A stretch of DNA of 64,000 nucleotides from a virus (IMGVR_UViG_3300047546_003220); one strand, 5' to 3'. Shown: positions 12,533-53,193, numbered from the stretch's first letter. Numbers and translations are program-made. The notes: generated by a model not told the origin, from the sequence alone.

Positions 12533-12567
12533 CTGTCGTATTTTCAGCAAATATAAAGTAATTGTTG

Positions 12568-22890: not shown

Positions 22891-22891
22891 G

Positions 22892-23818: not shown

Positions 23819-24166
23819 ATGATTGTTGAAATTAACGAAAATTATTTTAAAGTTAAAACTTTAACAGACCCAAAATCACAAAAAGTTGGGATGATGAATA
23901 AAGTTTTTGATGACTCATTTAATGGTTTATTATTTTTAATGGGTGGAAAGAAACAATGTTTTTGGATGAAAAATTGTATCATTCCGCTCGACATAATTAT
24001 TATAAAAAATAATGTAATAGTCAACATTCACCACGATTGTCCTCCATGTTTAGAGGAGCCTTGTCCAAGTTATTGTGGTAATGGTAATATTGTTTTGGAA
24101 GTTGAAGGTGGTACTTGTGAGTTGCTTGGTATTGAGGCTGGCGATTCGGTTGAATATCACATTTAG
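23819..24166 (+). CDS. DUF192 (COG1430) family protein. The ATG is at 23819; the track start at 23804 is TTG.
   Basis: …NGLLFLMGGKKQCFWMKNCIIPLDIIII…VNIHHDCPPC… matches the conserved DUF192 core pattern. Confidence 0.4.
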   Translation: MIVEINENYFKVKTLTDPKSQKVGMMNKVFDDSFNGLLFLMGGKKQCFWMKNCIIPLDIIIIKNNVIVNIHHDCPPCLEEPCPSYCGNGNIVLEVEGGTCELLGIEAGDSVEYHI

Positions 24167-24702
24167 TTTTTCCAAATAGTTTCGTTCACGTCTTCTCTAT
24201 TTCCAATAAATCTTGCCAAAACAAAGAAGAAATCACTTAATCTGTTAAGATAGATTGTGATTGGGTGTAGTTTTTCGAAATTATCCAATACTTTACATTC
24301 TAATACTTCAATTTCAGTTCTTCTTGCAATTGTTCTACAAATATGTGCTAAACAACTAGCTCTTGTACCTTTTGGTAAGATAAAATTTTTCAGTGGTGGT
24401 AACTTTTGATTCATCACATCCATAGCATCCTCTAACAACTTTACATCCTCTTCGGTAACTTCAGTTAATTCTGTTTTATTATCGTTGATAATCATGGACC
24501 CCGCATTGAAAAGATTCCATTGGATTATTTCCAAATCAGCATGTGAATTATAGGTCTCACTTCGGAGTAATCCTACAAATGAGTTAAGTTCATCGAGTGA
24601 ACCTACAGCCTTAATTTCTTGAATTGTTTTGGGAACCCTTCGGCCTGATAACAAACTTGTTGTGCCGTCGTCACCTTTTTTTGTGTATACTTTGTTTGCC
24701 AT
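24163..24702 (-). CDS. PduO-type ATP:cob(I)alamin adenosyltransferase. The ATG start is at 24702 (MANKVYTKKGDDGTTSL); the track start is TTG.
   Basis: The N-terminal motif VYTKKGDDGTTSLLSGRRVPK…AVGSLDELNSFVGL is the signature of the PduO/MMAB family. Confidence 0.7.
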   Translation of the reverse strand: MANKVYTKKGDDGTTSLLSGRRVPKTIQEIKAVGSLDELNSFVGLLRSETYNSHADLEIIQWNLFNAGSMIINDNKTELTEVTEEDVKLLEDAMDVMNQKLPPLKNFILPKGTRASCLAHICRTIARRTEIEVLECKVLDNFEKLHPITIYLNRLSDFFFVLARFIGNREDVNETIWKN

Positions 24703-24720
24703 ACACAAATAATAAGTCAA

Positions 24721-34404: not shown

Positions 34405-35406
34405 ATGGAATATTCATTAGAAGATTTTGTGGAGATGTTCAATAACGATGATTTGGATGTCGAAAAGTATTTCAACGACTACGATACTTTTTTTTCTATA
34501 TTGAATAGAAAAGGTCTAATGGGTGAAATAGACCCACACAATGCAGGTAACGGTGATGTATGGCAAAATCAATATCTTATTTGGTTATATAACAATGATA
34601 AAGTAGAATTTTACAAATGGATGAAAGAATTGTTAAATGATATCGACTTCAAGGACCAAGTATATTGGGAGGGAGATAGAGAGGATTTAGCGAGACTTTT
34701 TTGTGATGGGGCAAGATATGATTTAAGTCGCGACACTGTTGAGAGTATTTTGAAAGGTGATGATGTTTTTGAACCATATTGGGATACAACTGATGATGTT
34801 GTAAGAGACGTAATTGAAGAATTAACACCTCAAAATTTGGAGCTCTTCAAACAAAGAGTACTGAAGGAATTAGAGGGTAAAAAACTTTCCCCCGAAACAG
34901 AAGAAATGGAATTAATTGCAGCTGAACAGGGACATGAGGATTTTTGGGTAATAACTCCTGAAAATGTAGCAAGAATTATTGATAATGATGAGTCAATCAA
35001 AACCTTATTAAAGGATGAACTAAGTGATATAAAAAGTGATTTATATTCAATTCATTCAAGTGCCTACAATTCCGCTTATGAACATGAGGTTTATGATAAT
35101 ATATTCCATGAACTTGATGATTATTTCGATACTGAAAAAGGTGAATGGGTCTATACACAACACCCCTACAAGAAAGATGTAAAAATAGAAAAATATAGAT
35201 TACCAATTCGAGACTTCGAAGGTCTTGTTGTAGATTACTTGGATAATAACAAGGGTTATGGAAATTCAGGAACATTAGAATATCACGGTAGTTTTCTTGG
35301 TATAATTGAAGCGGATAAAGATTGTTTAAGTGTACAAGCTCCAGATTATCCTGACCACAGATTAGTAGATAAAAACATAAACGAATATTTTGGAGACCAC
35401 TTCTAA
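34405..35406 (+). CDS. hypothetical acidic protein
   Basis: A 333-aa ORF that begins a 3-gene plus-strand block. Confidence 0.4.
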   Translation: MEYSLEDFVEMFNNDDLDVEKYFNDYDTFFSILNRKGLMGEIDPHNAGNGDVWQNQYLIWLYNNDKVEFYKWMKELLNDIDFKDQVYWEGDREDLARLFCDGARYDLSRDTVESILKGDDVFEPYWDTTDDVVRDVIEELTPQNLELFKQRVLKELEGKKLSPETEEMELIAAEQGHEDFWVITPENVARIIDNDESIKTLLKDELSDIKSDLYSIHSSAYNSAYEHEVYDNIFHELDDYFDTEKGEWVYTQHPYKKDVKIEKYRLPIRDFEGLVVDYLDNNKGYGNSGTLEYHGSFLGIIEADKDCLSVQAPDYPDHRLVDKNINEYFGDHF

Positions 35407-36191
35407 TGGCATACATAAAATATACATTATTGGAACAGAGAGGGTTCTCCCCTTCCAAAAAGCCACCAAAGAATATTAATAATATTCTTTCTCAGATTGA
35501 ACTATTTGAAATGTATCCAAAGATTTTTGCTTTGGTTATCAAAGATGATAGGTTAAGAGCAAGAGTCTTCATGAGATATCAAGAATTTTATGAGTCGGAT
35601 TCAGAAACTTTCAGAGGTAAAGGTTTTAAGTGGTATGATTACGTAAAGTATTATAAGGAAAAAACTAAAAAAGATTATTTCTCTTATCATGAAGATTGGG
35701 CTGGTTATAACATACCATGTGATTCAATAGAATCATGTATGAAATTAATACCTGATATAAATTATTATGATTTAATAATGTTCAGTGTAATTGATACCAT
35801 CAGAGAAATAGTTGGAAACGACAACTTTTATTTGATTGGAATCGACCAAAGCAATGGTGAAGACCCTTCTTTGATTTTTCACGAAGTTGCACATGGTCTT
35901 TATTATTCTTCACCAAACTATAAAAACAAGCAGTTAAAAAACATAGAAAGACTCAACCCGAATATCAGAGAAAACTTGTCTAAAAAAATAAGTACCATGG
36001 GATATGGTGAAAATGTAATAAATGATGAGATACAAGCCTATTTATCTACAGGGGTAGATTATCCAATGACTGCAATTAAAGGTATTAAAGAAGCCCAAAT
36101 TCCTTTTAAAGAGGTTTTTGATTCATATGCAGGGAAAATCAAACCGAAAAAAATTAAAATAGATTGGTCCACAGACCTTAATAATGATTAG
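35406..36191 (+). CDS. hypothetical protein with an HExxH motif (…LIFHEVAHGLYY…); possible zinc metallopeptidase
   Basis: HEVAH is seen in the sequence with a Glu about 40 residues downstream; peptidase identity is not established. Confidence 0.3.
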   Translation: MAYIKYTLLEQRGFSPSKKPPKNINNILSQIELFEMYPKIFALVIKDDRLRARVFMRYQEFYESDSETFRGKGFKWYDYVKYYKEKTKKDYFSYHEDWAGYNIPCDSIESCMKLIPDINYYDLIMFSVIDTIREIVGNDNFYLIGIDQSNGEDPSLIFHEVAHGLYYSSPNYKNKQLKNIERLNPNIRENLSKKISTMGYGENVINDEIQAYLSTGVDYPMTAIKGIKEAQIPFKEVFDSYAGKIKPKKIKIDWSTDLNND

Positions 36192-37029
36192 ATTCGTAAA
36201 CATATTAACAAACCTGATTTCCGAAGCCAAGAGATATAAATTTTCTCCTGAAACTTTGGATAAAATCAACAAGATGGTAGATAAACTTTGGTCCGAAAGA
36301 GGTAAAGACCTCCAAAGACGCAAAGAACTTATGGGTGTTATTCCTGTTAAAACCGCCAATGGTGTTGATGGTTTGGTAAGAGTTTACGTTAATCCCAGAT
36401 TATCATACATAGGTTTTATGGATTTAAGACCTTCAAAATCATTGGACCCAGCAGATTTAGTTATCGAGGTGAACCCAAAATATTATGAGTCAAAAAAGAA
36501 CCTTTATCTTACTTTATACCATGAAATGTTACACGCTGTTGACCCAACTCAAAGTGTACATTGGTCTCCAAGACACATGATGAATTATGACGAAAAATCT
36601 GATGAGAATTATTGGGGTCATCCTGTTGAATTTTTTGCGATTTCCAATGAATTTTTGGAAGGTTTGGTAAAAGAATTTGCAAGAAGAGTTAAGAGAACAC
36701 GTAAGCCTGAAAATATAGAATTTTTGAATAATTCACTTAAAAACATTTTGAATTACTTTGCAAAAGGTGAACCGTTAAGTCCATTAAGTAAGGATATTCT
36801 TTTCAGAGTAAATGACGAACACGTCAGTGAAGAGACTCCGAAAGCTTTAAAAAATTGGACTGCAGATATGCCTCATTTGGCCGACTTCATGACTCGTGGA
36901 GAGGAAGAACCTTACTATCTCTATTATGTGCAAATGATTAAGAAATTCAATCCAGAAATTTGGAAGAAGTTTCTAAGTATGTTGTACGATACAACATTCG
37001 AGATTAAAGATTTAATTAATAAAAAATAA
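36184..37029 (+). CDS. hypothetical protein with an HExxH motif (…LYHEMLHAVDP…); possible zinc metallopeptidase
   Basis: A second HExxH protein directly adjacent, overlapping the previous gene by 8 nt. Confidence 0.3.
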   Translation: MIRFVNILTNLISEAKRYKFSPETLDKINKMVDKLWSERGKDLQRRKELMGVIPVKTANGVDGLVRVYVNPRLSYIGFMDLRPSKSLDPADLVIEVNPKYYESKKNLYLTLYHEMLHAVDPTQSVHWSPRHMMNYDEKSDENYWGHPVEFFAISNEFLEGLVKEFARRVKRTRKPENIEFLNNSLKNILNYFAKGEPLSPLSKDILFRVNDEHVSEETPKALKNWTADMPHLADFMTRGEEEPYYLYYVQMIKKFNPEIWKKFLSMLYDTTFEIKDLINKK

Positions 37030-37031
37030 GG

Positions 37032-39608
37032 TTAGATTCCCAAACTTTTTTCTAAAATCTCTAATTTCTTCTCATTATAATCTAAGATTTCACTTTGTTC
37101 TTTGATTGCTTCCAAACACGCAGCAATCAACGAGTCATATTTTACAACTAACACATTTTCGTCATCTTCTTTACCTGCCACCAATTCAGGGAAGGCAACT
37201 TGTAATTCTTGGGCAATGAAACCAACATCAACTAAACCATCATTTGTTTTTTCGTTGTTCCAGTTGTAATTTACCCCTCTTATCTTGGATATTTTATCTA
37301 TAGCGTTAGTGATAGGTCGGATATTTGTTTTATATCTTATATCTGACGGACCCGTAGGTCCCGTAGGACCTGGAGCTCCTTGTGCACCTTGAGGTCCTGT
37401 AGAACCACCAGGACCAGCAGGTCCTTGTGAACCTTGTGAGCCTTGGGCTCCTTGGTTACCAGGAGGTCCTCCAACACCTTGAGCACCCTGACCACCTTGG
37501 GCTCCTTGAGCCCCTTGTCCACCTGTTGGTCCTTGTGCTCCTTGAGGTCCTTTTGGTCCTTGTGTACCTTGGGCACCTTGTCCACCACCAGGTCCTTGAG
37601 CTCCAACACTACCTTGGGCTCCTTGTCCTCCTTGAGCACCTTGCCCGCCACCAGGTCCTGTGGCTCCTTGAGCGCCTTGTCCTCCCTGAGAACCTTGTGA
37701 ACCTTGACCACCCTGAGACCCTTGAGCACCCTGAGCTCCTTGAGCACCTTGACCTCCTTGAGCACCCTGTCCACCTTGTGACCCTTGAGCTCCTTGAGCA
37801 CCCTGTCCACCTTGTGCTCCTTGAGCACCCTGTCCACCTTGTGCACCTTGGGGCCCTGTTTGACCCTGAGCACCTTGGGCTCCTTGCGCCCCTTGTCCAC
37901 CTTGTGAACCCTGATTACCCGTTGCACCTTGAGCTCCTTGACCACCTTGTGCTCCCTGTCCACCCTGTGAACCTTGAGCACCTTGTCCTCCTTGAGACCC
38001 TTGAGCTCCCTGAGCACCTTGACCTCCTTGTGCTCCTTGTCCTCCTTTGGCGCCTTGTGAACCTTGAGCACCTTGAGCACCTTGTCCTCCTTGAGAACCT
38101 TGAGCACCTTGTCCTCCTTGGCTACCCTGAGCCCCTTGAGCGCCTTGTCCACCTTGTGAGCCTTGGTTACCCACGGGACCTTGTGAACCTTGAGCTCCTT
38201 GAGCACCTTGTCCACCTTGTGAACCTTGGGCTCCTTGAGCTCCTTGACCTCCTTGCGAACCTTGAGCTCCTTGTCCTCCTTGTGAACCTTGACCTCCTTG
38301 AGCGCCCTGTCCACCCTGAGCTCCTTGTGCTCCTTGTCCTCCTTGTGAACCTTGAGCTCCTTGAGCACCTTGACCTCCTTGAGCTCCTTGAGCACCTTGT
38401 CCTCCTTGTGAACCTTGAGCTCCTTGAGCACCTTGACCTCCTTGAGCTCCTTGAGCACCTTGTCCTCCTTGAGAACCTTGTGAACCAGTGTTACCTTGTG
38501 AACCAACAGCTCCTTGAGAACCTTGACCACCCTGAGAACCTTGGGCACCTTGTGCTCCCTGTCCACCTTGCGCTCCTTGAGCACCTTGTCCTCCTTGGCT
38601 ACCCTGTGACCCCGTATTTCCTTGGGAACCAACTGCACCTTGTGAACCTTGTCCTCCTTGGGAACCCGTTGCACCTTGTGCACCCTGTCCTCCTTGAGCA
38701 CCTTGAGCTCCTTGTCCACCTTGACTTCCTTGTGACCCAGTATTACCTTGAGAACCTTGTCCACCTTGGGCACCTTGACCACCTTGGGAACCAGTTGCAC
38801 CTTGTGCTCCTTGTCCTCCTTGAGCACCTTGAGCTCCTTGTCCCCCTTGGGAACCTTGGGACCCCGTATTTCCTTGAGAACCTTGTCCTCCTTGAGCACC
38901 TTGACCACCTTGGGAACCAGTTGCACCTTGCGCTCCTTGTAACCCTTGAGCCCCTTGAGCACCTTGTCCACCTTGGCTACCCTGTGAACCTGTATTACCC
39001 TGAGAACCTTGTCCTCCTTGAGAACCCTGACCACCTTGTGAGCCAGTAGCACCTTGTGCTCCCTGACCCCCTTGAGCACCTTGGGCTCCTTGTCCACCTT
39101 GGCTACCCTGTGAACCTGTATTACCTTGCGCCCCTTGACCTCCTTGAGAACCTTGACCTCCTTGAGAACCTTGCGCTCCCTGACCACCTTGTGCACCCTG
39201 GCCTCCTGTTGAACCTTGAGCACCCACCGCTCCTTGTGAACCTGTTGCACCCGAGGCTCCTGTAGGTCCAACTGAACCTTGAGCACCTGTGGGACCTTGA
39301 GCACCCGTTGGTCCGACTGAGCCTTGAGCACCTGTAGGACCTTGAGCTCCTTGTGGTTCGGGATTTCCCAACCAACCGACTGAAGTTATCAATGGGTCTA
39401 AAGCATTGTTAACTAACTTGGTAGTCAACTTCAAATCCGCGTCACTAACCCTAAATGTTGGAGCGGCTGAATTCCATGTAAGATAGGTTGTTGCACCTCT
39501 TTTCCATTGGAGAGTACCACTAGATACAACAAGTAGAGTTGATGTACTTCCAGTGTCCAAAAAATCTATCTGTCCACTACCTGGGGTTATTATAATATCT
39601 TCAGCCAT
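37032..39608 (-). CDS. collagen-like (Gly-X-Y) fibre protein 1 with a C-terminal endosialidase-chaperone (Peptidase_S74) autoproteolytic domain
   Basis: N-terminal globular domain ([13 protein letters not shown]…), about 670 aa of GAQ/GSQ/GGQ triplets, then …[32 protein letters not shown]…VGFIAQELQ…, the S74 intramolecular chaperone signature (S-D-x-R-x-K-x-N-I … Y/F-x-W). Confidence 0.8.
37347..39355. repeat. Gly-X-Y triplet tandem repeat tract of fibre 1, with a super-repeat of about 126 bp
   Basis: Continuous (GNN)n coding with recurring 42-residue units ([42 protein letters not shown]). Confidence 0.8.
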
Positions 39609-42315
39609 TTATTTTTTCTTTCAATAAATTTATTCTCTTCAAAATATTGTCGATTCTGACTTGTTGTTCTTTTATTGCTCCGATTCCAAATGCAACCATT
39701 GAATCATAGTCAACAGACTTAAATCCTTCATCATCAGTCCAAACGACTTCGGGAACAACTTTTTCTAAGTCTTGAGCAATGAATCCGACAGAACCTCCCG
39801 TAAAGGCATATGGTGTAGCAATATTTGGGTCTTCAACGATTTTTTTATGGGGTAACCAATCAAATCTAACTCCCTGAATTAATTTTATGGTATCCATAAC
39901 ATCCTGTAAAGGTTTGATGTTATCCTTTAATCTTTGGTCTGATGGTGGACCAGTTGGACCTGTAGGGCCTTGTGACCCTTGAGCTCCCTGACCCCCTTGT
40001 GACCCTTGACCACCTGTGGCGCCTTGTGCTCCTGTTGAGCCTTGTGCTCCTGTTGGACCGTTGTTAGGTCCTGGTGCTCCACCTGGACCTTGAGCACCCT
40101 GAGCTCCTGTATTTGCACCTTGAGCTCCTTGAGCACCTTGGTTACCTGGTAATCCTTGAGCACCTTGTGCTCCAGTGTTAGCACCTTGAGCACCTTGGGC
40201 TCCTTGAGCTCCTTGAGCACCAACGTTACCTTGGGCTCCTGTGTTTGCACCTTGGGCTCCTTGTGAACCTTGAGCACCTGTTCTTCCTGTTGCACCTTGG
40301 GCTCCTGTACTTGCTCCTTGTGCACCTTGGGCTCCTTGAGCTCCTTGAGCACCTATGTTTCCTTGAGCTCCTGTAGGGGTTCCTTGTGCACCTTGGGCTC
40401 CTTGCGCACCCGTTGAACCAACAGCTCCTTGAGCTCCTTGAGGTCCTCCTTGAGCTCCTGTTGAACCTTGGGCTCCCTGAGCTCCAACCGCACCTTGTGA
40501 ACCTTGGCTAGCTCCTTGAGCTCCTTGTGAACCTTGAGCACCTTGAGCTCCTGTATTACCTTGAGCACCTGTACTAGCTCCTTGAGCACCTTGAGCTCCT
40601 GTGTTACCTTGAGCACCTGTAGCACCTTGGGCTCCTGTGCTAGCACCTTGGGCTCCTTGAGAACCTTGAGCTCCCTGTGCTCCTGTCGCGCCTTGAGCAC
40701 CTGTACTTGCTCCCTGAGCTCCTTGAGCTCCTGTGCTACCTTGAGCACCTGTAGCACCTTGGGCTCCCGTACTCGCTCCCTGTGCACCTTGACCACCTTG
40801 TGAACCTTGAGCTCCTGTTGCTCCTTGTGCTCCTGTACTTGCTCCCTGAGCTCCTTGTGCACCTTGTGCTCCCGTATTACCTGTGGCACCTTGAGCACCT
40901 GTGGTTCCACCCTGTGCTCCTTGTGCACCTTGTGCTCCCGTATTACCTGTCGCCCCTTGAGCACCTGTGGTTCCACCCTGTGCTCCTGTAGCACCTTGTG
41001 CACCTGTGTTACCTGTAGCACCTTGAGCACCTGTAGTTCCTCCCTGAGCTCCTGTAGCACCTTGGGCACCTGTGTTACCTGTAGCACCTTGAGCACCTGT
41101 AGTTCCACCTTGAGCTCCTTGTGCACCTTGACCTCCTTGTGCACCTTGACCTCCTTGGGCGCCTGTACTTGCTCCCTGAGCTCCTTGTGCTCCTTGAGCA
41201 CCTGTATTTCCTGTGGCTCCTTGTGCTCCCGTTGTGCCTCCTTGCGCTCCTTGAGCTCCCTGTCCTCCTTGGGCTCCTTGACCTCCCTGAGCACCTGTAC
41301 TTGCTCCCTGAGCTCCTTGCGCCCCTTGAGCGCCTGTATTCCCTGTGGCTCCTTGTGCTCCCGTTGTACCACCCTGAGCTCCTTGTGCTCCTTGACCACC
41401 TTGAGCTCCAGTTGAACCTTGAGCACCTGTAGTTCCTCCTTGAGCACCCTGAGCTCCTTGAGCACCTGTATTCCCTGTGGCTCCTTGTGCTCCTGTTGGT
41501 CCACCTTGAGCTCCTTGAGCTCCCTGTCCTCCTTGGGCTCCTGTACTACCTTGTGCTCCCGTAGTTCCTCCCTGAGCACCCTGAGCTCCTTGAGCACCTG
41601 TATTACCTGTAGCACCTTGGGCTCCTGTAGTACCACCTTGAGCTCCTTGGGCTCCTTGACCACCTTGGGCACCTGTACTACCCTGTGCACCTGTACTTGC
41701 TCCTTGGGCTCCTTGAGAACCTTGAGCGCCTGTGTTACCTGTAGCACCTTGTGCTCCTGTCGTACCACCTTGAGCGCCTTGGGCTCCTTGACCACCCTGA
41801 GCTCCTGTACTACCCTGTGCACCTGTACTTGCTCCTTGGGCTCCTTGAGCACCAGTGTTACCAGTGGCTCCCTGTGAACCTTTTGCCCCTTGAGCACCTT
41901 GTCCACCTTTTGCTCCTTGCGAACCTTGTCCACCTTGAGCACCTTGTCCTCCCTGAGCTCCTTGACCACCTTGTGCTCCCTGACCTCCCTGTGCTCCTTG
42001 AGCTCCCTGACCTCCCTGTGCTCCTTGAGCACCTGCGATACCCGCTGTTGGTCCTGCCCATGTACCATCAGAGTTAACCATCTTAACACCACCAACATAT
42101 AAACCTTTGCCTGTACCTGTAACAGAACTTCCACTTACAGTTACTGTTGCTCCAAGTGTTGCAATATTGGAGTTAGTCGTAGATGAAACAACAACTACCC
42201 CGTCAGCTCCTACGTTGAGTTGGATTCTTCCACCACTCGCATCTTCAAATACAGTATGTGGAGCGGTGTTACCACCAGCATTTCCATTAGGATATATTAT
42301 AACGTTAGTGGGCAT
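39601..42315 (-). CDS. collagen-like fibre protein 2 with a C-terminal Peptidase_S74 chaperone domain
   Basis: N-terminus [15 protein letters not shown]…; a GXY tract with a periodic one-residue interruption (GGTT or GAST) every 22 residues; C-terminus …[32 protein letters not shown]…VGFIAQDLE…. Confidence 0.8.
39943..42040. repeat. Gly-X-Y tract of fibre 2 with a super-repeat of about 66 bp (22-residue unit [22 protein letters not shown])
   Basis: Regular repeats visible in both nucleotide and protein sequence. Confidence 0.8.
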
Positions 42316-45184
42316 TTTTCAATTTTAATTCTAAATCTTTTATTTGATTTTCAATATCATCAATAAATAGTTGTTGTTCCTTTATACCCTCAACTAATAC
42401 TGCATTCAATTTAACATATTCAATATAATAGTAACCTTGGTGGTTGACTTTTACTACCGTCGGATAAAACTCTTTTACGTTTTGAGCTATCAAACCAACT
42501 GAGTGAATCTTTTTGAGTCCATTAATATCTCTATATTTTCCGTCAGTTAATTTTTCATTCCAATCGAATTCAACAGTATCAATCTGAAGAATTTTATTTA
42601 AAGAGTCCTCAAGAGTTACAATATTTCTTTTAAGTCTCCTATCCGAACAGAAGTAGTTGTAAATATAGTATCCACCACTTCCTGTATATCCAGCACAAGA
42701 ACTACCTTGGTATCTCACGTTCCTTGCACCTGCGGTCCACTGACTACAATCTGAAGCGGTATATAACTGTACGTCAGCACATCCACTCCATGAAACTGTT
42801 GTATAATAGTAGAACGAACCACAACTGTATGGATAATTACATAATGAATATTGAGTACAGTTTGACCATACCAAGTTGGCATTACAAGTTCCACTTGGTC
42901 CTGTTGGACCTGTTGGACCTTGAGCCCCTTGAGCACCTGTATTTCCTGTAGCACCTTGTGTTGAACCAACGTATCCTGTACCACCTTTCGCACCTTGAGC
43001 ACCTTGTGGTCCTGGTGAACCTCCAGGTCCTTGTGAACCTGTCGCACCCGTTGAACCTTGAGCTCCTGGATGACCTGTATTTCCTGCTGGTCCTGTAGGT
43101 CCTGTTGCACCTACAGCTCCTTGTGCTCCTGGGTGTCCTGTTGCACCCTGAGCTCCTTGAGAACCCCCTGAGTTTGTAGCACCTTGCGCTCCTGGATGTC
43201 CCGTGGCTCCTTGTGACCCTTGAGAACCTCCTGTTCCTGTATTTCCTTGTGCACCTGTGTTTCCGACAGCTCCCTGTGAACCTTGATTACCTCCAGCCCC
43301 TGTATTTCCTTGAGCACCTGTATTACCTGTGGCACCTTGGACCCCTTGTGGCCCTGTAATGTTTGCGGCTCCTGTCGGTCCTTTAGCTCCCTGTGAACCT
43401 GTAGCACCCTGAGAACCTGCAGCGTTTGGTGCTCCTTGAGCACCTGTATTACCTGTGGCCCCTTGAGCTCCTGTTGAACCTCCGCCTCCTGTGGCGCCTT
43501 GTGCTCCCGTATTACCCACCGCACCTTGGGAACCAGTATTTCCTGCAGCTCCTCCACCACCCTGTGCTCCTGTATTACCTGTTGCTCCTTGAGCTCCTGT
43601 TGAACCAGCAGCACCTCCCGCACCTTGTGCTCCTGTGTGACCAACAGCACCTTGAGAACCAGTATTTCCGCCTGCTCCTCCTGCACCTTGTGCTCCTGTA
43701 TGCCCTGTGTTTCCTTGAGCACCTGCAGAACCTCCTCCACCTGTAGCACCTTGTGCTCCTGTGTGTCCTACAGCCCCTATGGAACCTTGAGCCCCTGTGG
43801 GACCTCCCGCGCCTGTTGGACCTACTGCTCCTGTGTTTCCCGTTGCACCTTGTGAACCTGTCGCTCCTACAGCTCCTGTTGGACCTACTGACCCTGTTGG
43901 ACCGACAGCACCTTGTGAGCCAGTTGGACCTGTTGCACCTGTTGGTCCAACTGCACCTGTTGGTCCTGTTGCTCCTTGAGAACCAGTCGGACCTGTTGCA
44001 CCTGTTGGCCCCACATTACCTTGAGCTCCAGTGGGTCCTTGTGCTCCTGTATTACCTGTAGCACCTTGTGCTCCTGTATTACCTGTGGCACCAATTGAAC
44101 CCTGAGCTCCCGTTGGACCAGTATCACCTGTTGGACCTACGTTACCTTGTGCACCCGTTGGACCTTGAGCACCTGTATTACCTATAGCTCCTTGTGCACC
44201 TGTATGTCCTTGTGCACCTGTCGAACCTTGGGCTCCTGTAGGACCTACAGCTCCTGTTGGACCTACGTTACCTTGTGCACCCGTTGGACCTTGTGCTCCT
44301 GTTGGACCAACCGCACCTGTCGGACCAACCGCACCTTGTGCTCCTGTTGAGCCTTGAGCACCTGTCGGACCAACTGCTCCTGTTGGACCTACGTTACCCT
44401 GTGCACCCGTTGGACCCTGAGCACCTGTTGGACCTACCGAACCTGTCGGACCAACCGCACCTTGTGCTCCTGTTGAGCCTTGAGCACCTGTTGGACCTAC
44501 TGCTCCTGTTGGACCTACGTTACCTTGTGCTCCTGTCGGACCTTGAGCACCTGTATTACCTATGGCTCCTTGTGCTCCTGTGTGTCCTTGAGCACCTGTA
44601 GAACCTTGGGCTCCTGTCGGACCAACCGCTCCCGTTGGACCTACGTTACCTTGAGCTCCTGTTGGACCTTGTGCTCCTGTGTTACCTGTGGCACCTTGAG
44701 CACCTGTATTTCCTGTAGCACCTTGAGCTCCTGTTGGACCTGTGTCTCCTGTAGCTCCTTGAGCTCCTGTATCACCTGTGGCACCTTGAGCACCTGTAGA
44801 ACCTTGAGCACCTGTGTTTGCACCTTGAGCACCTGTATTACCTGTAGCTCCTTGTGAACCTGTGGCACCTTGAGCACCCGTTGGACCCGTGGCTCCTTGC
44901 GCTCCAGCAATTCCTGTGTCGGGACCAATCCAATTGGCAGTACCATCGATTACCTGTACTCCTCCAATTGTAAAATTGTTTCTAACGTTCAACGATACCA
45001 CAGATATAATCGCATTAGAAATTTGAACCGATACGGTATTGACTTGAGTAGGAGAACTAATATTGATTGTTGAGCCTGATACGACTTTCCAACTACTCGT
45101 ACTGTTGTTTACCCAGTTAATATACGGTATACGGTCGGGTTGCGGAGCTAACGTATTACTTGGAACTATTAAGATATCGCCCAT
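42305..45184 (-). CDS. collagen-like fibre protein 3 with a Cys-rich module and a C-terminal Peptidase_S74 chaperone domain
   Basis: N-terminus [15 protein letters not shown]…; GPT/GAQ/GNV triplets; a Cys-rich segment (…[30 protein letters not shown]…[15 protein letters not shown]…SSCAGYTG…); then …[31 protein letters not shown]…[11 protein letters not shown]…. Confidence 0.8.
42916..44920. repeat. Gly-X-Y tract of fibre 3 ([28 protein letters not shown]… super-repeats)
   Basis: A (GNN)n tract with recurring 42-residue units. Confidence 0.75.
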
Positions 45185-45283
45185 GAATGTTTTTTTCTGT
45201 ATCTATAAATACAATTAACTATGGATTTGTATTCATTTTTATTTTTATAATTTATATGATTGTTCAAATAATAATTACATCGA

Positions 45284-46006
45284 ATGAACTTAAAAAAAAT
45301 AGGCGGAAAGAAATTTCTTGTAAATCTACTTTCTGACTTTATTCTCAGTAAAATACCACCTGAAGAGAAATCAATTATCAAGGTTATTGATTGTGAAAAT
45401 TTTTACGTGTTAAAAGGAAAAACCTCATCAAAAGAGGTTTTATTCATTCCAAACATAATTTCAGAGTTCAAAGAAAAATATTCCGAATACATAGAAAATA
45501 AATCTATAACTCACACTATAGATTTAATTGAGTACGACTCAGAACTTAATGAAACTTTAGAAATCGAACATACTTTCCACAATAACACTCCAAACTGTTC
45601 ATATCATTGGAAAGAAGTTGAAGGTTTTGAAGGTTACATCGAAATTGATGAAATTGTTTATGTGTCTGAATTCCCTTATGGGTATTCATTGCAACAGGGT
45701 AGAGACTTATATTATTACATGAAATACATTTTTTATAATATACCCTCAAATTACCCTGTAACTTCTTTAACTCTCACCTTATCCAAAGAAAAAAATGAAG
45801 ATGGTGACCAAGGCTTGATTGTGTTTGATGAGTTTTTCAAATCGGAGGATGAAAGGTTAAAGTCAGCAATCTTAGATGTGTTTGATTTTAATTTTGATAG
45901 ATTAAGTGAAAAAATGAAAAAAGTGGATTGGAGTATTGAACTCACGAATCCACTTGAAGAACATTCAGAATTAAAAGAAGTCGTAAAGGACTTTATTATT
46001 ATTTAA
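45284..46006 (+). CDS. hypothetical protein (plus strand, divergent from the fibre genes)
   Basis: A 240-aa ORF with an ATG start. Confidence 0.35.
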   Translation: MNLKKIGGKKFLVNLLSDFILSKIPPEEKSIIKVIDCENFYVLKGKTSSKEVLFIPNIISEFKEKYSEYIENKSITHTIDLIEYDSELNETLEIEHTFHNNTPNCSYHWKEVEGFEGYIEIDEIVYVSEFPYGYSLQQGRDLYYYMKYIFYNIPSNYPVTSLTLTLSKEKNEDGDQGLIVFDEFFKSEDERLKSAILDVFDFNFDRLSEKMKKVDWSIELTNPLEEHSELKEVVKDFIII

Positions 46007-46301
46007 TAAGTCCCAATTTTTTTTGGTGTCCTTTGATAATATCAACCGCTTCTGTTAGTTGATTATAATTTTTCTCAGGTACATAGGTAAATGACTCATA
46101 GTTATCTGAATCACCCTCAATTATCAACATCGCTGGGACCATATCGTTGTTAGTGATTTCAGAGAACAAATCATACTCTTTTTTATACTTGTCGATATCT
46201 CTGTCGAAAAATTTTATTTTTGCTTCTTTCAACATTTTTTTGAAATCAACGCAGTGAGGACAACCCTCCATCGTATAAACAATAACATTTAAGTCTTTCA
46301 T
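45999..46301 (-). CDS. glutaredoxin/NrdH-like thiol-disulfide oxidoreductase (CPHC active site)
   Basis: …VIVYTMEGCPHCVDFKKML… is a thioredoxin-fold N-terminal CxxC. Confidence 0.55.
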   Translation of the reverse strand: MKDLNVIVYTMEGCPHCVDFKKMLKEAKIKFFDRDIDKYKKEYDLFSEITNNDMVPAMLIIEGDSDNYESFTYVPEKNYNQLTEAVDIIKGHQKKLGLIK

Positions 46302-46302
46302 G

Positions 46303-46623
46303 CTAGTCCAATAAATTTAGAACTTCAACGGGAGACATAACACCAGGTTTAGAAAAAACCTCTTGTCCCGATTTGAATATTTTTATAGTTGGAACACTTC
46401 TAACATTGAGTTCATTAACAACGTATTCTCTGTCTGAATCAATATCATATTTGTAGATATTATACTTTGGTTGTGATGACTCCAAAATAAGAGCTTCGTT
46501 TACTTTTGATAAGTTATTCAACATAACTTTACAAGGTCCACACCAAGTTGCATATAAATCTAATACAAAATTTTCACCTTGATTAATTTTTTCCTTCAGT
46601 TGTTGTGTCGTTAGTTGTTCCAT
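46303..46623 (-). CDS. trxA: thioredoxin
   Basis: …FVLDLYATWCGPCKVM… is the canonical WCGPC motif; 106 aa. Confidence 0.8.
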   Translation of the reverse strand: MEQLTTQQLKEKINQGENFVLDLYATWCGPCKVMLNNLSKVNEALILESSQPKYNIYKYDIDSDREYVVNELNVRSVPTIKIFKSGQEVFSKPGVMSPVEVLNLLD

Positions 46624-49709: not shown

Positions 49710-51029
49710 CTAATCTTGTAAATCCCACATTCCATTACCCATATCAGTACCTTTCGACTTGATACTTTCAGGAACCTGCACATTATCACTTCCCTTGAGA
49801 TTCAAGAAGAATAAGTTAGGCAAGTTTCCAATACAATCAGGAATGCTCTTAAGTTTTGGGTTATTGATAAGAGCCAAGAATTTCAACTTAGGCAATTCAC
49901 ATATTGAATCAGGGACACTATCAATACAGTTATCTAATAGAACCATCTGAAGATTTTGGAATCTTGAGATTGATTCAGGAATTGAGATATTGATTTCGTT
50001 TTTGTTGTCTCTGTTTTGAATTTGGAACTCTTTCAATGATTCAGGTAAGTTATCAATGAGGTCATCAAGGCCATAAAGACCGATAAATTTACCGATGGCA
50101 CCATGACTGAAACTATCGATAACCAATTTTTCTCCACCAACAGTAAGACCTTTTGCAAACTCAGGCTTGAATATAGATTTCAACTCAACCATTGGACCAT
50201 TCAACATCTTAATTAGGTCTACACTACGGTCGTCTTTATCCATGAATTGACCTGATGGGAAATGGAATTGATATCTTTCAACAGGTAATCCTGTTTCAGG
50301 AGCAATTTTAGGGTCGTTAGGGTTGAAAATTACATATAATGGTCCGTCTTTGATATATCTATCAAACCAACTTGCACCTGGAGCTGAAGTACACCATCTT
50401 GTTTCTTTGTTATTTCCACCGTAGAAACAAGCCGCTTCTTTACCTGTAGCACCTTTGTTCTCAATTTCAATAACTCTCCAATTTTCACCATCATAAAGTA
50501 ATTTAGCACCAGGGTGAACAGGTGCACTTTTTCTTTCAGATTTTGTAGTTGTCGCTAAAGTCAAATCGAAATCCTTAACCGCATCATATAGTTGGTCAGG
50601 AGTCAAGTTATTGATATCCCTCATTTCTTTAGGTAATCTACCTTTGAATCTTTCGAATTTTTTTAAGTCATCGGAAACCTTATACAAGTCTTCCATGAAA
50701 GTTTCTTTGACTTGCTTAACTTCTTTTTCGTAACCTGTATCACCAGGGGCTCTCTCTGTTCTTGGATTCAAATAATTTTTGATTAACCACTGAACATATC
50801 CACCAGCCTTGATTTTAGCAAGTTCCTTTGAGTCGGCAGTCTCAGGGTCAACGTTGTTCAATCTTGTTGTTGGGTCAGCTTGTACCAATTGCAAAAACTC
50901 ACCGATAGACATCTTAGGCTTTTGTTTTTCACCCTTCTTATCTGTGGTTGGTTTTGTAAGAGCATCTCTCAAAATCTCAAACCTCGATTGCTCCAAAATA
51001 ACTTGTCTCAAAATTGATGTAAATTTCAT
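49710..51029 (-). CDS. 439-aa protein with an N-terminal domain homologous to 32315..34075 and a C-terminal canonical leucine-rich repeat region
   Basis: C-terminal LRRs (…LPESLKEFQ…IPESISRFQNLQMVLLDNCIDSVPDSICELPKLKFLALINNPKLKSIPDCIGNLPNLFFLNLKGS…) and the shared WCT-motif domain. Confidence 0.45.
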   Translation of the reverse strand: MKFTSILRQVILEQSRFEILRDALTKPTTDKKGEKQKPKMSIGEFLQLVQADPTTRLNNVDPETADSKELAKIKAGGYVQWLIKNYLNPRTERAPGDTGYEKEVKQVKETFMEDLYKVSDDLKKFERFKGRLPKEMRDINNLTPDQLYDAVKDFDLTLATTTKSERKSAPVHPGAKLLYDGENWRVIEIENKGATGKEAACFYGGNNKETRWCTSAPGASWFDRYIKDGPLYVIFNPNDPKIAPETGLPVERYQFHFPSGQFMDKDDRSVDLIKMLNGPMVELKSIFKPEFAKGLTVGGEKLVIDSFSHGAIGKFIGLYGLDDLIDNLPESLKEFQIQNRDNKNEINISIPESISRFQNLQMVLLDNCIDSVPDSICELPKLKFLALINNPKLKSIPDCIGNLPNLFFLNLKGSDNVQVPESIKSKGTDMGNGMWDLQD

Positions 51030-51073: not shown

Positions 51074-51913
51074 CTAATAATTCAATATCAAAAGCTCTTC
51101 TCCCATATTTTGTTTTACACCTTTTTTTGCCGCCGCAGCTTTAGCAAATTCTTTTTTCTCCCATCTGAATCTGTCTGAAGGATACCATTGGTGTAATAAT
51201 TCAAAATCGTAGTAGGATAAACTGAATTTACTTTGAACTGAATTTAAACATGTTGCTAGTCTTTCGTGGTCCCCTCTATCAAAATCATGATTGGAATAAT
51301 AATTTTCAGTTTTCCAATAGGGTGGGTCTAAATAAATGTATGTTGAAGGGGAATCATACTTTTCAATCACTTGTTGGAAATCCATGTTCTCAACGTTAGT
51401 AATTTTGATAAAGTGTTCAACCCAATCAGGTTTGGAAAGTTTGTCCCTGAATGTAAGATACTTCGAACGATACTCACCTTTTAAGTCAATAAATGATGAT
51501 GTTTCTGGTTTACTTCCACTGAACACTTGAGTTACAACATAAACATATTTTGCTGCAACTTCATAATCTGGATAATTTATTGTAAACCCTGAAGAAAATA
51601 ATTCTGTCTGATATTCTCTAAATCTATCTTTGAAACTGAAATCAGTCACATACACACCTCTTTGTTGTACTGGTATTGCATCCATTGCTCTTTGTAGTTC
51701 AGATGGATTCTGAACACATTGGAACAAGTTGTAATTTAAAGGGTTGAAGTCATTGTAGACAACTCTCTTGAGATTTGGGAATTGTCCCAAGTCCATATTA
51801 AAGAAACACCAAAACATTCCCCCGAATGTTTCTACATACGTTTCCATGTCTCTGAGATAGTAATCCACTATCCATTTTCCGATTTTTGATTTTCCACCAA
51901 TATAACTTAACAT
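51074..51913 (-). CDS. Dam-like (D12 class) N6-adenine DNA methyltransferase
   Basis: N-terminal MLSYIGGKSKIGKWIVDY (the AdoMet-binding IGGK motif of the D12 class) and the catalytic …YIYLDPPYWKTE… (DPPY). Confidence 0.7.
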   Translation of the reverse strand: MLSYIGGKSKIGKWIVDYYLRDMETYVETFGGMFWCFFNMDLGQFPNLKRVVYNDFNPLNYNLFQCVQNPSELQRAMDAIPVQQRGVYVTDFSFKDRFREYQTELFSSGFTINYPDYEVAAKYVYVVTQVFSGSKPETSSFIDLKGEYRSKYLTFRDKLSKPDWVEHFIKITNVENMDFQQVIEKYDSPSTYIYLDPPYWKTENYYSNHDFDRGDHERLATCLNSVQSKFSLSYYDFELLHQWYPSDRFRWEKKEFAKAAAAKKGVKQNMGEELLILNY

Positions 51914-52136: not shown

Positions 52137-52301
52137 ATGTCCGAAGAACAAGGTTGTAAAAAATGTAAACAAAAAAATACAAATCTAAAACAGTGGGCTA
52201 CTGGCGCTTTAGGTTTTTGGGTTCTTGGAACATCTATCTATGGAACTATAGTTTTGGTAAGACATCTTACCGAATACCTTAGACAGGTCTTTGGAATTTA
52301 A
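52137..52301 (+). CDS. small membrane protein (54 aa; CKKC pair plus one TM helix)
   Basis: An ATG ORF MSEEQGCKKCKQKN…WATGALGFWVLGTSIYGTIVLV…; it is divergent from the previous small ORF with only a 10-nt spacer, so at most one of the two is likely real. Confidence 0.2.
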   Translation: MSEEQGCKKCKQKNTNLKQWATGALGFWVLGTSIYGTIVLVRHLTEYLRQVFGI

Positions 52302-53193
52302 CGTTGAGTTTGATATACATATCTCCTCCATTGTAACCTTTACCTCTTAGTCTTAATGGTCTTGATGTATCAAATATTTTTGGTGCATCCATACTCAAAT
52401 TTCCGTCGGGATGTGGGATAATATACTTTTCTTGAGTAACTCCGCTTAAATCCAAGAATAGATTATAAATTAAATCATTATTTAATTTCTCAAAACCATC
52501 TTTCGGTATTAGTTCAATTTGAATTACTAAGTCACCTACATCACCATTTTTGAAGTCTCCCAAACTTTGTAATTTCAAAAATTGACCATTATCACACCCT
52601 GTAGGTATTTTAATTCGAATATCACTTACAGTTTGACTTGTACCTCTACCACCACATAAATAACATCTCTCTGTAATCATTTGCCCTTGACCATTACAGG
52701 TTGGACAAACTGTTCTAATCTGTTGGACCATAAAACCAGTACCAAATGTTTTTATATGGAAACCGTAACCACTACAATGTGAACATGGGACTTTATCTCC
52801 ACCCGAACCCCCACATGAATTACAGGCCAAGTCTCTTGTATATTGTATCTCTTTTTCCAAACCCAAATAAGATTCTATAGGGTTGATTTGGAGTTTTATA
52901 ATTTTATCAGGTGCGGATTTTTTTCTTTGTGGTTGTTGTTGTCGATTGAACATATTATCGAAAAAACTTTCAAATTGACTTCCTTGAAAAGGATTTTTTC
53001 TTTGGAAATCATATGTTTGTTTCTTTTCTTTGTTACCCAAGATTTCATAAGCTTCATTTATTTCTTTGAATTTTTCAGCTCCCTGAGGGTTCACATCAGG
53101 ATGGAATTTTTTAGAAAGATTTCTGTAGCTCTTTTTAATTTCTTCATCTGACGCATTCTCTTCAACTTCTAAAATATTGTAGTAATTTTTCAT
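52279..53193 (-). CDS. dnaJ: DnaJ-like co-chaperone (J domain, four CxxCxGxG zinc-finger motifs and a C-terminal substrate-binding domain)
   Basis: J domain YYNILEVEENASDEEIKKSYRNLSKKFHPDVNP…; CNSCGGSGG…CSHCSGYGF…CPTCNGQGQ…CYLCGGRGT. Confidence 0.75.
   Translation of the reverse strand: MKNYYNILEVEENASDEEIKKSYRNLSKKFHPDVNPQGAEKFKEINEAYEILGNKEKKQTYDFQRKNPFQGSQFESFFDNMFNRQQQPQRKKSAPDKIIKLQINPIESYLGLEKEIQYTRDLACNSCGGSGGDKVPCSHCSGYGFHIKTFGTGFMVQQIRTVCPTCNGQGQMITERCYLCGGRGTSQTVSDIRIKIPTGCDNGQFLKLQSLGDFKNGDVGDLVIQIELIPKDGFEKLNNDLIYNLFLDLSGVTQEKYIIPHPDGNLSMDAPKIFDTSRPLRLRGKGYNGGDMYIKLNVKFQRPV

Follow-up and report, generated by a model that had tools for sequence, protein, structure and literature searches.

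A conserved three-gene cassette encodes length-matched collagen-like proteins with C-terminal S74 chaperone domains in a probable jumbo phage

Three overlapping genes share one architecture

The window analyzed here is a stretch of 64,000 nucleotides of viral DNA (IMGVR_UViG_3300047546_003220), in which three tandem genes, designated F3, F2 and F1 in operon order, are preceded by a short intergenic region:

42305..45184, minus strand: F3 gene, 959 aa, leading the operon and encoding an anchor, a collagen rod, a Cys-rich tip and an S74 domain
39601..42315, minus strand: F2 gene, 904 aa, an ORF with Pfam Collagen and Peptidase_S74 domains
37032..39608, minus strand: F1 gene, 858 aa, an ORF with Pfam Collagen and Peptidase_S74 domains
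45185..45283, no strand: divergent intergenic region 5' of F3, 99 bp, AT-rich, presumed to contain the operon promoter

A sequence-only reading of this DNA had described tandem genes of 858, 904 and 959 aa overlapping by 8 and 11 nt, and the ORF calls reproduce this exactly: F3 and F2 overlap by 11 nt (42305-42315) and F2 and F1 by 8 nt (39601-39608), the latter overlap being kept in all relatives. A sigma-70 promoter scan of 45185..45283 gave no signal above chance. Comparison of GC3 values (0.17-0.19 for the fiber genes, 0.26-0.32 for their neighbors) shows that the codon usage of the fiber genes is native to the genome. In all three proteins, an N-terminal beta-rich domain of 86-91 aa is followed by 222-225 Gly-X-Y triplets, and Peptidase_S74 forms the C-terminal domain.

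The N-terminal domains are type-specific and rare in databases:

44915..45184, minus strand: F3 N-terminal domain, aa 1-90, a type-specific putative anchor
42043..42315, minus strand: F2 N-terminal domain, aa 1-91
39351..39608, minus strand: F1 N-terminal domain, aa 1-86, modeled by AF2 as a beta-hairpin meander

For the F3 domain, 5.8e9 proteins yielded only 3 close homologs, and the F2 domain resembles it weakly (E 2.6e-5); the F1 domain has 36 relatives among 1.84e9 representative proteins, in nearly all of which Gly-X-Y repeats follow. The AF2 model of the F1 domain reached a pLDDT of 83, and a fold search with it gave no significant match. The shared N-terminal motif proposed earlier needs correction: F1 and F2 have M-x3-[IV]-I-I-x-P, and F3 has M-x2-I-L-I-x-P. 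On reading, none of the three N-termini contains a signal-peptide-like sequence, and assembly is therefore expected to be cytoplasmic.

The collagen rods are built from a common repeat module

Strong matches to Pfam Collagen (PF01391) were obtained for all three proteins, with E-values of 8e-52 (F1), 5e-48 (F2) and 7e-81 (F3), and define the rods as follows:

42884..44914, minus strand: F3 rod, aa 91-767, 222 triplets interrupted by 5 breaks, with a period of 7/14 triplets
39943..42042, minus strand: F2 rod, aa 92-791, 224 triplets (16 x 14) with a Pro-rich C-terminal end
37347..39350, minus strand: F1 rod, aa 87-754, 222 unbroken triplets plus a Gly-Pro dipeptide

In F1 the dipeptide and the cleavage Ser755 together make up a 223rd triplet, giving 223 triplets with no interruption. 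F2 carries 28 one-residue insertions, one every 7 triplets, and 26 consecutive intervals between them measure exactly 22 residues, bearing out the strict 22-residue interruption noted before; the same period is found in relatives L005 and L006. The F3 rod amounts to 225 triplets when each of its 2-4-residue breaks is counted as one triplet. The triplet counts thus agree better than the residue spans of the rods (669 in F1, 700 in F2 and 677 in F3). The equality of the three counts had escaped the sequence-only reading.

This repeat structure far exceeds chance. Tandem Repeats Finder (TRF) returned periods of 126/63 bp for both F1 and F3 and of 66/132 bp for F2, so that the super-repeat lengths of about 126, 66 and 126 bp reported earlier hold, but not their distinctness, since in triplet units a 7/14-triplet period is common to all three fibers: the 66 bp repeat of F2 is 7 triplets plus one residue, and each fiber in the window is approximately 16 x 14 triplets. 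All periods are in-frame multiples of 3 bp, and slippage would therefore alter length rather than switch expression on or off. The rods are Pro-poor and Gln/Thr-rich, with abundant Gly-X-Gln in F1 and a Thr-rich composition in F3, and proline clusters in the final 10% of the rod, beside the S74 domain (10 of 20 Pro in F1, 9 of 12 in F2). That such sequences form a stable triple helix is assumed by analogy with polar-rich bacterial collagens; at ~224 triplets, or ~32 modules of 7 triplets, the rods would be about 190-200 nm long.

Each protein ends in a predicted self-cleaving S74 domain

The C-terminal domains, also recognized in the sequence-only reading, are located as follows:

42305..42646, minus strand: F3 S74 domain, aa 847-959, cleavage Ser847 and Lys852, Pfam 48.8 bits
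39601..39942, minus strand: F2 S74 domain, aa 792-904, Ser792 and Lys797, Pfam 49.0 bits
37032..37346, minus strand: F1 S74 domain, aa 755-858, Ser755 and Lys760, Pfam 66.5 bits

Scores against Peptidase_S74 (PF13884) of 66.5 (F1), 49.0 (F2) and 48.8 bits (F3) all exceed the cut-off of 22 bits and cover profile positions 1-57/58, so that a profile search finds both Collagen and Peptidase_S74 in each protein. The Ser/Lys dyad, with Lys at +5, lies in SDIRYK, SDQRLK and SDRRLK across the F1, F2 and F3 set (SDRRLK in F3); every copy carries S-D-x-R-x-K, and the pattern SD.R.K..I matched all complete orthologs. A phmmer search of the PDB matched 6f45 and 7dc3, the autoprocessing domains of phage S16 gp37 and MYRF, and tblastn matched 563 phage records. 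The S74 signature proposed from sequence therefore stands, although two of its finer elements do not, as F1 has Y-N-W in place of 'F-x-W' and F3 has VGLIAQNV in place of 'VGFIAQ(E/D)L'. Taken together, these matches support F1, F2 and F3 as collagen-like fiber proteins ending in an S74 intramolecular-chaperone domain, from which we infer that the domains trimerize and cleave themselves off.

Only F3 carries a distal module upstream of the cleavage site

The rod of F3 is separated from its S74 domain by one further element:

42647..42883, minus strand: F3 Cys/Tyr-rich distal module, aa 768-846, hypervariable, a candidate receptor-binding tip

This module of ~80 aa, which the sequence-only reading had correctly placed before the chaperone domain, contains 8 Cys (the flanking GTC counted), with a Cys at both ends (GTC...YFC|S). 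Its identity between orthologs ranges from 16 to 71%, versus 50-87% for the adjacent S74 domain. In F1 and F2, by contrast, the collagen abuts the cleavage Ser directly in every relative, and the mature forms of these two proteins are therefore predicted to be tip-less. Only F3 would keep a tip after the predicted cleavage, and this module is likely a receptor-binding element, with F3 as the receptor binder.

These features bear on the earlier proposal that the three genes encode alternative receptor-binding tail fibers giving combinatorial or phase-variable host recognition. Three paralogs do stand in tandem, and the length polymorphism anticipated for the repeat tracts was indeed seen among related populations, F1 ranging from 160 to 238 triplets in close relatives. 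Nevertheless, two of the three proteins would lack a binding domain once cleaved, the in-frame repeat units preclude on/off switching, and the paralogs, which always occur together, are ancient. Moreover, the tip-module DNA has no second (template-repeat) counterpart anywhere in the 64 kb window, and we found no invertase, recombinase, DGR element or reverse transcriptase among the ~40 ORFs scanned. We consequently regard variable host recognition of this kind as highly unlikely.

Triplet number is matched between the three paralogs

Relatives, among them an IMG/VR viral contig of 317 kb, keep the cassette syntenic in the order F3, F2, F1, and F3 orthologs were identified in L001, L003, L006, L007, L012, L015, L018, L022 and L023. 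S74 domains of one type are 49-68% identical, versus 29-37% for domains of different types; F1, F2 and F3 are three ancient paralog types that occur together, always in fixed order. In three lineages the triplet-equivalents of F3/F2/F1 are 225/224/223, 139/140/139 and 118/120/118, so that the triplet number differs about two-fold between lineages (224, 140, 119) and is matched within each genome. The F2/F1 counts of 224/223, 140/139, 120/118, 210/202, 225/238 and 189/160 co-vary between genomes (r = 0.96, p = 0.0025, n=6), the last three, unequal pairs coming from short metagenome contigs in which repeat collapse during assembly may distort module counts. Module numbers are thus equal in the three best-supported genomes and approximately so in the others.

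Such matching invites a heterotrimer, in which one chain each of F1, F2 and F3 would form a single triple helix, on the pattern of C1q or type IV collagen, registered by a heterotrimeric S74 module and with the F3 knob monomeric and looped out between collagen and S74. Equal triplet-equivalents in three lineages, the better agreement of triplets than of spans and the 7/14-triplet period of all three chains speak for this arrangement; overlapping start and stop codons fit 1:1:1 synthesis, the three paralog types keep a fixed order, F1 and F2 have no tip of their own, and the Cys at both ends of the F3 tip would permit a closed loop. C1q A, B and C likewise derive from three linked genes with equal triplet numbers and breaks in only some chains. 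However, the interruptions of the window chains are unmatched (28 in F2, none in F1, 5 in F3), in L006 the breaks fall at differing triplet indices between chains, and the trimerization domain is S74 rather than gC1q; to our knowledge, all solved S74/ICA domains are homotrimers. The unequal counts noted above and L005, which has an F3N::F2C hybrid plus F1 and thus apparently two genes, also argue against a heterotrimer, though each may be an assembly artifact. We consider a heterotrimer possible but doubtful.

The genome context points to a jumbo phage

The cassette of L006 lies on IMGVR_UViG_3300032242_003291, a viral contig of 317,259 bp, together with 11 syntenic neighbors at 42-81% aa identity, and the DnaJ-like and DHH-like neighbors have their best matches in LR756502 and LR745206, uncultured phages of 634-642 kb. 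A viral contig of more than 200 kb and neighbors most like huge phages place the cassette in a jumbo or huge phage context, and phages of >634 kb are predicted to infect Bacteroidetes (PMC7162821). Carriage of a TonB-dependent receptor, with CarboxypepD_reg and Plug domains, in the window also speaks for this context. The source is probably a jumbo phage with a Bacteroidota host, in freshwater.

Besides the TonB-dependent receptor, the window encodes UvrC, DnaJ, sigma-70, DUF932 and PcfJ, and one contig with 96% identity was binned in a 'Betaproteobacteria' MAG. These cellular-type genes and this binning would suit a non-viral locus encoding cell-surface collagen-like adhesins, or fibers of an eCIS or tailocin, on a bacterial chromosome or conjugative element, and S74 or collagen is possible on eCIS fibers (PMC12923769). 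Against this origin stand the viral synteny and the huge-phage matches of the neighbors, the lack of any relative among 185,579 GTDB species genomes, the failure to find sheath, tube or baseplate genes in the window, and proteins with neither a signal peptide nor a C-terminal LPXTG motif, which scored 159-333 bits against the NCBIfam Lcl and Scl adhesin equivalogs, under their cut-offs of 325-500. A cellular origin is very improbable on these grounds.

Pfam and PHROGs recognized no gene for a capsid, tail, baseplate or terminase protein among the ~40 ORFs of the 64 kb window that are 150 aa or longer; the window holds no hallmark phage gene, and the syntenic flanks of L006 and L007 contain no structural gene. 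The cassette thus does not lie within or beside a tail or baseplate module in any of these three settings, and the PHROG 'tail fiber' matches are driven solely by the collagen and S74 segments. Because no virion gene is nearby, placement of the fibers on the virion is argued by analogy. Characterized S74-matured proteins are so far tailspikes, tail fibers or neck appendages, which disfavors the idea that these proteins are instead capsid or neck 'hair', that is, decoration fibers or whiskers that raise the capture radius or adhere non-specifically, with F3 adding a lectin-like knob. The hypervariable F3 tip resembles a specificity determinant, and the N-domain has no detectable similarity to known decoration proteins. 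Nonetheless, an operon away from any recognizable tail module and two of three fibers without a distal domain accord with such hair, for which the collagen-like trimeric capsid decoration protein SPP1 gp12 (PMC7602432) offers a precedent. On balance, we judge such a decoration role unlikely.

A model for three homotrimeric fibers

The reading we favor, at a probability of roughly 0.55, is that a jumbo phage carries a conserved operon of three genes for three kinds of long homotrimeric collagen-like virion fibers; the domains, catalytic motif, repeat structure, conservation, orthology, length covariation and variable tip are observed, and trimerization, cleavage, virion location and receptor binding are the parts that we infer. 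Three S74 domains of one type would trimerize in the cytoplasm and set the chain register, nucleating a triple helix at the Pro-rich C-terminal end that would then zip from the C- to the N-terminus, whereupon S74 would cut itself off at the conserved Ser via the Ser/Lys dyad. The type-specific N-terminal beta-rich domain (86-91 aa) would dock each chain on the particle, leaving mature F1 and F2 as tip-less rods and mature F3 ending in a hypervariable, disulfide-rich knob of ~80 aa. Rod length would evolve by gain or loss of 7-triplet units under a constraint, perhaps a shared reach or a shared ruler such as tail length, that holds the three fibers near equal module number. Two observations sit uneasily with homotrimeric virion fibers, namely that a tip-less fiber has no obvious means of binding a receptor and that three independent homotrimers need no near-exact triplet equality.

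The working principle proposed for S74 here is that of the procollagen C-propeptide, which sets the register and starts zipper folding in the C-to-N direction from a Pro-rich end before BMP1-type proteases remove it; the two are not homologous, and removal in the phage proteins is predicted to be autocatalytic. The closest functional counterparts are fibers and tailspikes matured by a C-terminal S74/CIMCD domain, such as K1F endosialidase, the T5 pb1 L-shaped fiber, S16 gp37 and the GA-1 neck appendage, which share the C-terminal S74 with its Ser/Lys dyad after a trimeric fiber (the trimer being predicted here). They differ in that S74 of F1 and F2 follows collagen instead of a beta-helix or receptor-binding domain, in the predicted headless mature product and in the three paralogs of one operon. 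Scl1/Scl2, Lcl, BclA and SPP1 gp12 resemble the window proteins as prokaryotic, hydroxyproline-free collagen-like rods, some of them Thr-rich (like F3) or polar-rich in composition, but S74 is absent from them, and the window proteins lack a signal peptide, an LPXTG motif and a C1q-like head.

Collagen-S74 fibers are previously known from phages, polinton-like viruses and eCIS, and what is new here is the conserved three-gene set of old paralog types, its shared period, its length matching and the predicted confinement of a tip to F3. In polinton-like viruses, collagen repeats are fused to the C-terminal chaperone of endosialidase, and each such protein is reported as the product of a lone gene, carrying one or two collagen domains (PMC12220804). 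These proteins and the PHROG 'tail fiber' families 6320, 5073 and 8745 have a two-domain architecture like that in the window, which differs from them in its ~224 triplets of 7-triplet modules, its length-matched three-paralog cassette and its rare, type-specific N-domains.

A cassette of three collagen-S74 fibre genes

Three overlapping fibre genes, transcribed in the order F3, F2, F1, encode the proteins analyzed here:

42305-45184, minus strand: F3 gene, 959 aa ORF
39601-42315, minus strand: F2 gene, 904 aa ORF
37032-39608, minus strand: F1 gene, 858 aa ORF

The ORFs and their coordinates stand as the sequence-only reading gave them, all on the minus strand, with overlaps of 11 nt (F3/F2) and 8 nt (F2/F1). 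The HMMER search against Pfam proposed there as a check returned both Collagen (E = 7e-81, 5e-48 and 8e-52 for F3, F2 and F1, respectively) and Peptidase_S74 (48.8, 49.0 and 66.5 bits; cut-off 22 bits) above cut-off in all three proteins, with S74, a C-terminal intramolecular chaperone, at the extreme C-terminus of each. All three proteins keep the S74 nucleophile motif S-D-x-R-x-K, in which Lys stands at +5 from the Ser, with cleavage predicted at Ser755 in F1, Ser792 in F2 and Ser847 in F3. The F1 domain matches two autoprocessing domains of known structure, from phage S16 gp37 (6f45) and MYRF (7dc3). Every feature of the S74 and collagen families that is testable in sequence was found, and the fibres fall outside the Scl/Lcl adhesin families. 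The motifs described earlier were mostly correct and required amendment in detail: F1 and F2 start M-x3-[IV]-I-I-x-P, F1 has Y-N-W rather than F-x-W, and F3 reads VGLIAQNV.

The basic pairing of collagen with S74 is an ordinary finding, as this architecture is already known from polinton-like viruses (PMC12220804) and occurs within PHROG 'tail fiber' families, while S74 or collagen modules are present in eCIS fibres (PMC12923769). What is new is a conserved cassette of three paralogs with a common 7-triplet (~6 nm) module and within-genome length matching, in which two members are tip-less and the third bears a hypervariable Cys-rich tip. Membership of the fibres among tail fibres is not established, as no tail, sheath, tube or baseplate families, and likewise no capsid, terminase or portal families, were found among the ~40 ORFs of the window. 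The fibres could instead be 'hairs' on the capsid or neck, for which SPP1 gp12 offers a precedent.

The GC content of the fibre genes is 50-57% versus 31-37% in the flanks. Horizontal transfer was considered on account of this excess and ruled out by the low GC3 of the fibre genes (0.17-0.19, versus 0.26-0.32 in neighbours) together with the same synonymous codon choice; the genes are thus native, and their GC excess stems from Gly, Ala, Gln, Pro and Thr codons.

The three rods share a seven-triplet period

Parsing of the Gly-X-Y tracts revealed 223 uninterrupted triplets in F1 (aa 87-755), 224 triplets with 28 one-residue insertions in F2, and 222 triplets with five breaks in F3, or 225 when every 2-4-residue break counts as a triplet, a near-equality that the sequence-only reading had overlooked. 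Its strict one-residue interruption of F2 every 22 residues was borne out, with 26 consecutive inter-insertion intervals of exactly 22 residues. The super-repeat lengths it regarded as distinct are not: Tandem Repeats Finder assigned periods of 126/63 bp to both F1 and F3 and of 66/132 bp to F2, but the 66 bp unit of F2 comprises 7 triplets plus one inserted residue, and in triplet units all three fibres have one 7/14-triplet period. Across all three, triplet autocorrelation stands at 0.40-0.60 for a lag of 14 and at 0.31-0.49 for a lag of 7 (medians 0.12-0.28). When each fibre is written out 14 triplets to a row, starting at its C-terminal end, it fills 16 rows whose columns line up.

In the F1 and F2 rods Pro clusters in the final tenth, adjoining S74, and the collagen abuts the cleavage Ser directly (slash marks the predicted cut: ...GPTGPTGP/SD in F1, ...GPTGPTGPP/SD in F2), so that mature F1 and F2 would be without a distal domain. 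The final F1 triplet, Gly-Pro-Ser, itself contains the cleavage Ser755, and the mature rod would end at residue 754.

S74 domains form trimers, direct the folding of the trimeric fibre that precedes them and afterwards cut at the conserved Ser, as in endosialidase, T5 pb1 and GA-1. The best-supported reading of the cassette, on our analysis, would be three homotrimeric fibres. S74, seated directly on the collagen tract with the most Pro-rich triplets beside it, would serve as a registration and nucleation domain; the triple helix would zip C-to-N from the S74-adjacent end, and S74 would then be removed autocatalytically at the Ser. The placement of S74 next to the most Pro-rich triplets fits such a role in C-to-N zipper folding. 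The procollagen C-propeptide plays a like part, from which S74 differs by its autocatalytic removal. A self-removing registration domain could be used to make recombinant, register-defined collagen trimers without hydroxyproline, and possibly collagen heterotrimers. With two of the three fibres predicted to mature without a distal domain, it is also worth asking what part a bare collagen rod could play on a virion.

F3 carries a divergent Cys-rich tip

F3 would be the only fibre of the three to retain a distal domain after the predicted cleavage. The Cys-rich module noted before its chaperone domain is indeed present, as ~80 aa with 8 Cys that follow the collagen and end ...YFC/SD immediately before S74. 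Tip identity is 37-71% in close relatives versus 79-87% for S74, and 16-27% in distant relatives versus 50-62% for the adjacent S74. Divergence so far above that of the neighbouring domain is, as judged from these alignments, the pattern expected for a candidate specificity determinant, and the F3 knob is a probable, putative receptor binder. Diversification of the tip by a DGR was rejected on the absence from the window of a template-like copy of the tip module. The earlier suggestion of phase variation found no support.

Glutaredoxin and thioredoxin genes (45999-46623, minus strand) lie immediately upstream of the fibre operon, and this synteny is kept in all relatives (L001, L003, L006 and L007). 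A role for the two in handling the 8-Cys tip is conceivable.

The cassette is conserved in a probable jumbo-phage lineage

A profile of the F1 N-domain (N-domains being the first 86-91 aa of the fibres), scanned against IMG/VR, located the cassette again on a viral contig of 317,259 bp (L006, IMGVR_UViG_3300032242_003291) and on a second contig of 20 kb (L007), with eleven neighbour genes syntenic with the window at 42-81% amino-acid identity. This result is decisive, and from it we conclude that the window belongs to a jumbo phage. A metagenome scan added 30 further loci; the viral, metagenome and GTDB locus scans all used the closer alignment (A2), the other (A3) being too divergent. A non-viral origin of the locus is unlikely: no relative was found in 185,579 GTDB species genomes scanned with A2. 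One 2.3 kb contig (L004, RFPQ01000172.1; 96.3% identical to window 39322-41661) is deposited within a Betaproteobacteria-labelled MAG (GCA_009926035.1); it is probably a piece of phage DNA that was binned there in error.

The F3 N-domain is rare (3 homologs among 5.8 billion clusters), and the F1 N-domain profile matched 36 of 1.84 billion representative proteins; almost all of these are contig-end fragments entering Gly-X-Y, which shows that the fibre genes break short-read assemblies. INPHARED phages searched by blastn with 7 kb of the flanks, and phages searched by tblastn with the F3 N-domain, gave no match, nor did an exact-protein look-up of F1 or a search of PDB sequences with the N-domain profile; one exact 32-mer was absent from IMG/VR and GTDB genomes, and a 240 aa neighbour used as an IMG/VR query gave no confirmed locus.

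All relatives share the gene order F3-type, F2-type, F1-type, the 8 nt F2/F1 overlap, the direct joining of collagen to Ser in F1- and F2-types, and a Cys-rich module of 79-88 aa before S74 in F3-types. S74 identity is 49-68% within types and 29-37% between types, indicating that the three paralogs are old, older than the divergence of these phages. The F2-type period of 7 triplets plus one residue is kept in L006 and in a further locus, L005 (~35 consecutive units).

L005 (295-4758) encodes a 1487 aa fibre that combines an F3-type N-domain, a ~250 aa globular insert (49% identical to one in L006 F3), a rod of 333 triplets in which the 22-residue period of F2-types recurs, and an S74 that is likewise F2-type; it directly follows a divergent 240 aa gene and precedes an F1-type gene. 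Either F3 and F2 recombined naturally here or the repeats were misassembled. F3 homologs in two JGI samples (L001, 2365-4904; L003, 2592-5251) are split by a -1 frame change near the repeat start, at different places and in homologs of different length; these splits are probably assembly errors in the repeat, and less probably programmed or population-level variation. L002 looks chimeric.

Other neighbours are also conserved. An LRR-containing protein (49710-51029, minus strand) and a D12-class adenine methyltransferase (51074-51913, minus strand) are among the best, at 74-78% identity to L006 or L007, above the non-repeat fibre domains. Two adjacent HExxH ORFs (35406-37029, plus strand; FHEVAHG and YHEMLHA), with weak SprT-like and DUF7809 matches, converge on the F1 end across a 2 nt gap and are conserved beside the cassette in L006 and another locus, L015, at 52-95% identity.

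Rod lengths are matched within genomes

Triplet-equivalents for F3/F2/F1 are 225/224/223 in the window, 139-141/140/139 in the L006 group (four contigs from different samples) and 118/120/118 in the L007 group (three contigs). Module number therefore matches within each of these three reproducibly assembled lineages while ranging from 17 to 32 among them, and the length polymorphism at repeat tracts for which a comparison of relatives had been proposed is evident between lineages (~118-140 versus ~224 triplets). Outside them module numbers co-vary, with F2/F1 counts of 210/202, 225/238 and 189/160 in less reliable short contigs. Over six independent genomes, and with the frameshifted F3 homologs of L001 and L003 (in or near the repeat) omitted from length statistics, F1 and F2 counts are correlated (r = 0.96, p = 0.0025, Spearman rho = 1.0); exact matches in reproducible groups deserve more weight than single-contig mismatches.

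Almost every count is a multiple of 7 triplets (17, 20, 23, 27, 29, 30, 32 and 34 units), as would be expected if whole repeat units are gained or lost, although assembly repeat collapse can likewise yield unit multiples. At the standard collagen rise of 0.286 nm per residue, paralog lengths would thus step by ~6 nm (7 x 3 x 0.286 nm), with the genes of one genome tracking each other. Predicted rod lengths in the three lineages are ~101 nm, ~119 nm (L006) and ~191 nm (the window), and 101-191 nm is within the range of myophage tails. The constraint could be a shared reach or a match to a ruler such as the tail, and is testable as ruler matching or as co-assembly of three chains.

Co-assembly is the basis of a different reading, in which F1, F2 and F3 are the chains of one ABC heterotrimeric collagen fibre that three divergent S74 domains register and then release, leaving a rod with a single monomeric Cys-rich tip whose length is set by concerted 7-triplet gain or loss in three genes. 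Equal triplet numbers, the common period, the coupled genes and the absence of tips from F1 and F2 would all be explained. We nevertheless consider this arrangement unlikely: the interruptions are unmatched (28 in F2, 0 in F1, 5 in F3), triplet counts are unequal in some contigs, and the L005 fibre, which might be a misassembly, appears to represent a two-gene variant. We know of no described heterotrimeric S74 and of no heterotrimeric collagen in a virus or prokaryote, and the arrangement, if true, would to our knowledge be the first of each. Three homotrimers remain the better-supported organization.

Genome context and probable host

The cassette offers a first structural handle on an uncultured, probably freshwater, jumbo-phage lineage in which most genes lack annotation. 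For two neighbours, the best tblastn matches lie in uncultured huge phages of 634-642 kb (LR745206, LR756502): a DnaJ-like protein (33% identity, E 3e-44) and a DHH-like protein (37-43% identity, E down to 1e-86). Bacteroidetes are the predicted hosts for this size class (PMC7162821), and known phages of freshwater Bacteroidetes reach 331 kb (PMC9723584). The host is probably a freshwater Bacteroidota, the freshwater origin being inferred from contig names and one MAG label. A promoter and terminator scan gave results at chance level.

In addition to thioredoxin and glutaredoxin, the window encodes two DNA methyltransferases, DUF932 and PcfJ-like proteins, an amidase, many ORFs without a family match and the following features:

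4601-8331, minus strand: TonB-dependent receptor-like protein of 843 aa, with CarboxypepD_reg, Plug and OMP_b-brl_3 domains, and the 400 aa protein that comes after it
11291-12550: HNH-domain protein adjoining the UvrC homolog
12568-13833, minus strand: short (421 aa) homolog of UvrC; GIY-YIG and RNase H-like endonuclease domains, score above the TIGR00194 cut-off
15521-16387, plus strand: second protein with a DnaJ-type CXXCXGXG zinc-finger region
22891-22963, minus strand: single tRNA-Met (CAT)
24163-24720, minus strand: cobalamin adenosyltransferase (E 4e-49)
52279-53193, minus strand: full DnaJ
61425-62222, minus strand: sigma-70 family factor

Host-like proteostasis and transcription genes of this kind are typical of huge phages. 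The 400 aa protein after the TonB-dependent receptor-like one starts with a signal of lipoprotein type (MKKLLFSLTLLSFISC), and the two look like a SusC/SusD-like pair in an apparent phage genome; the lipoprotein has matches of 37-50% identity on 'Bacteriophage sp.' contigs from human faeces.
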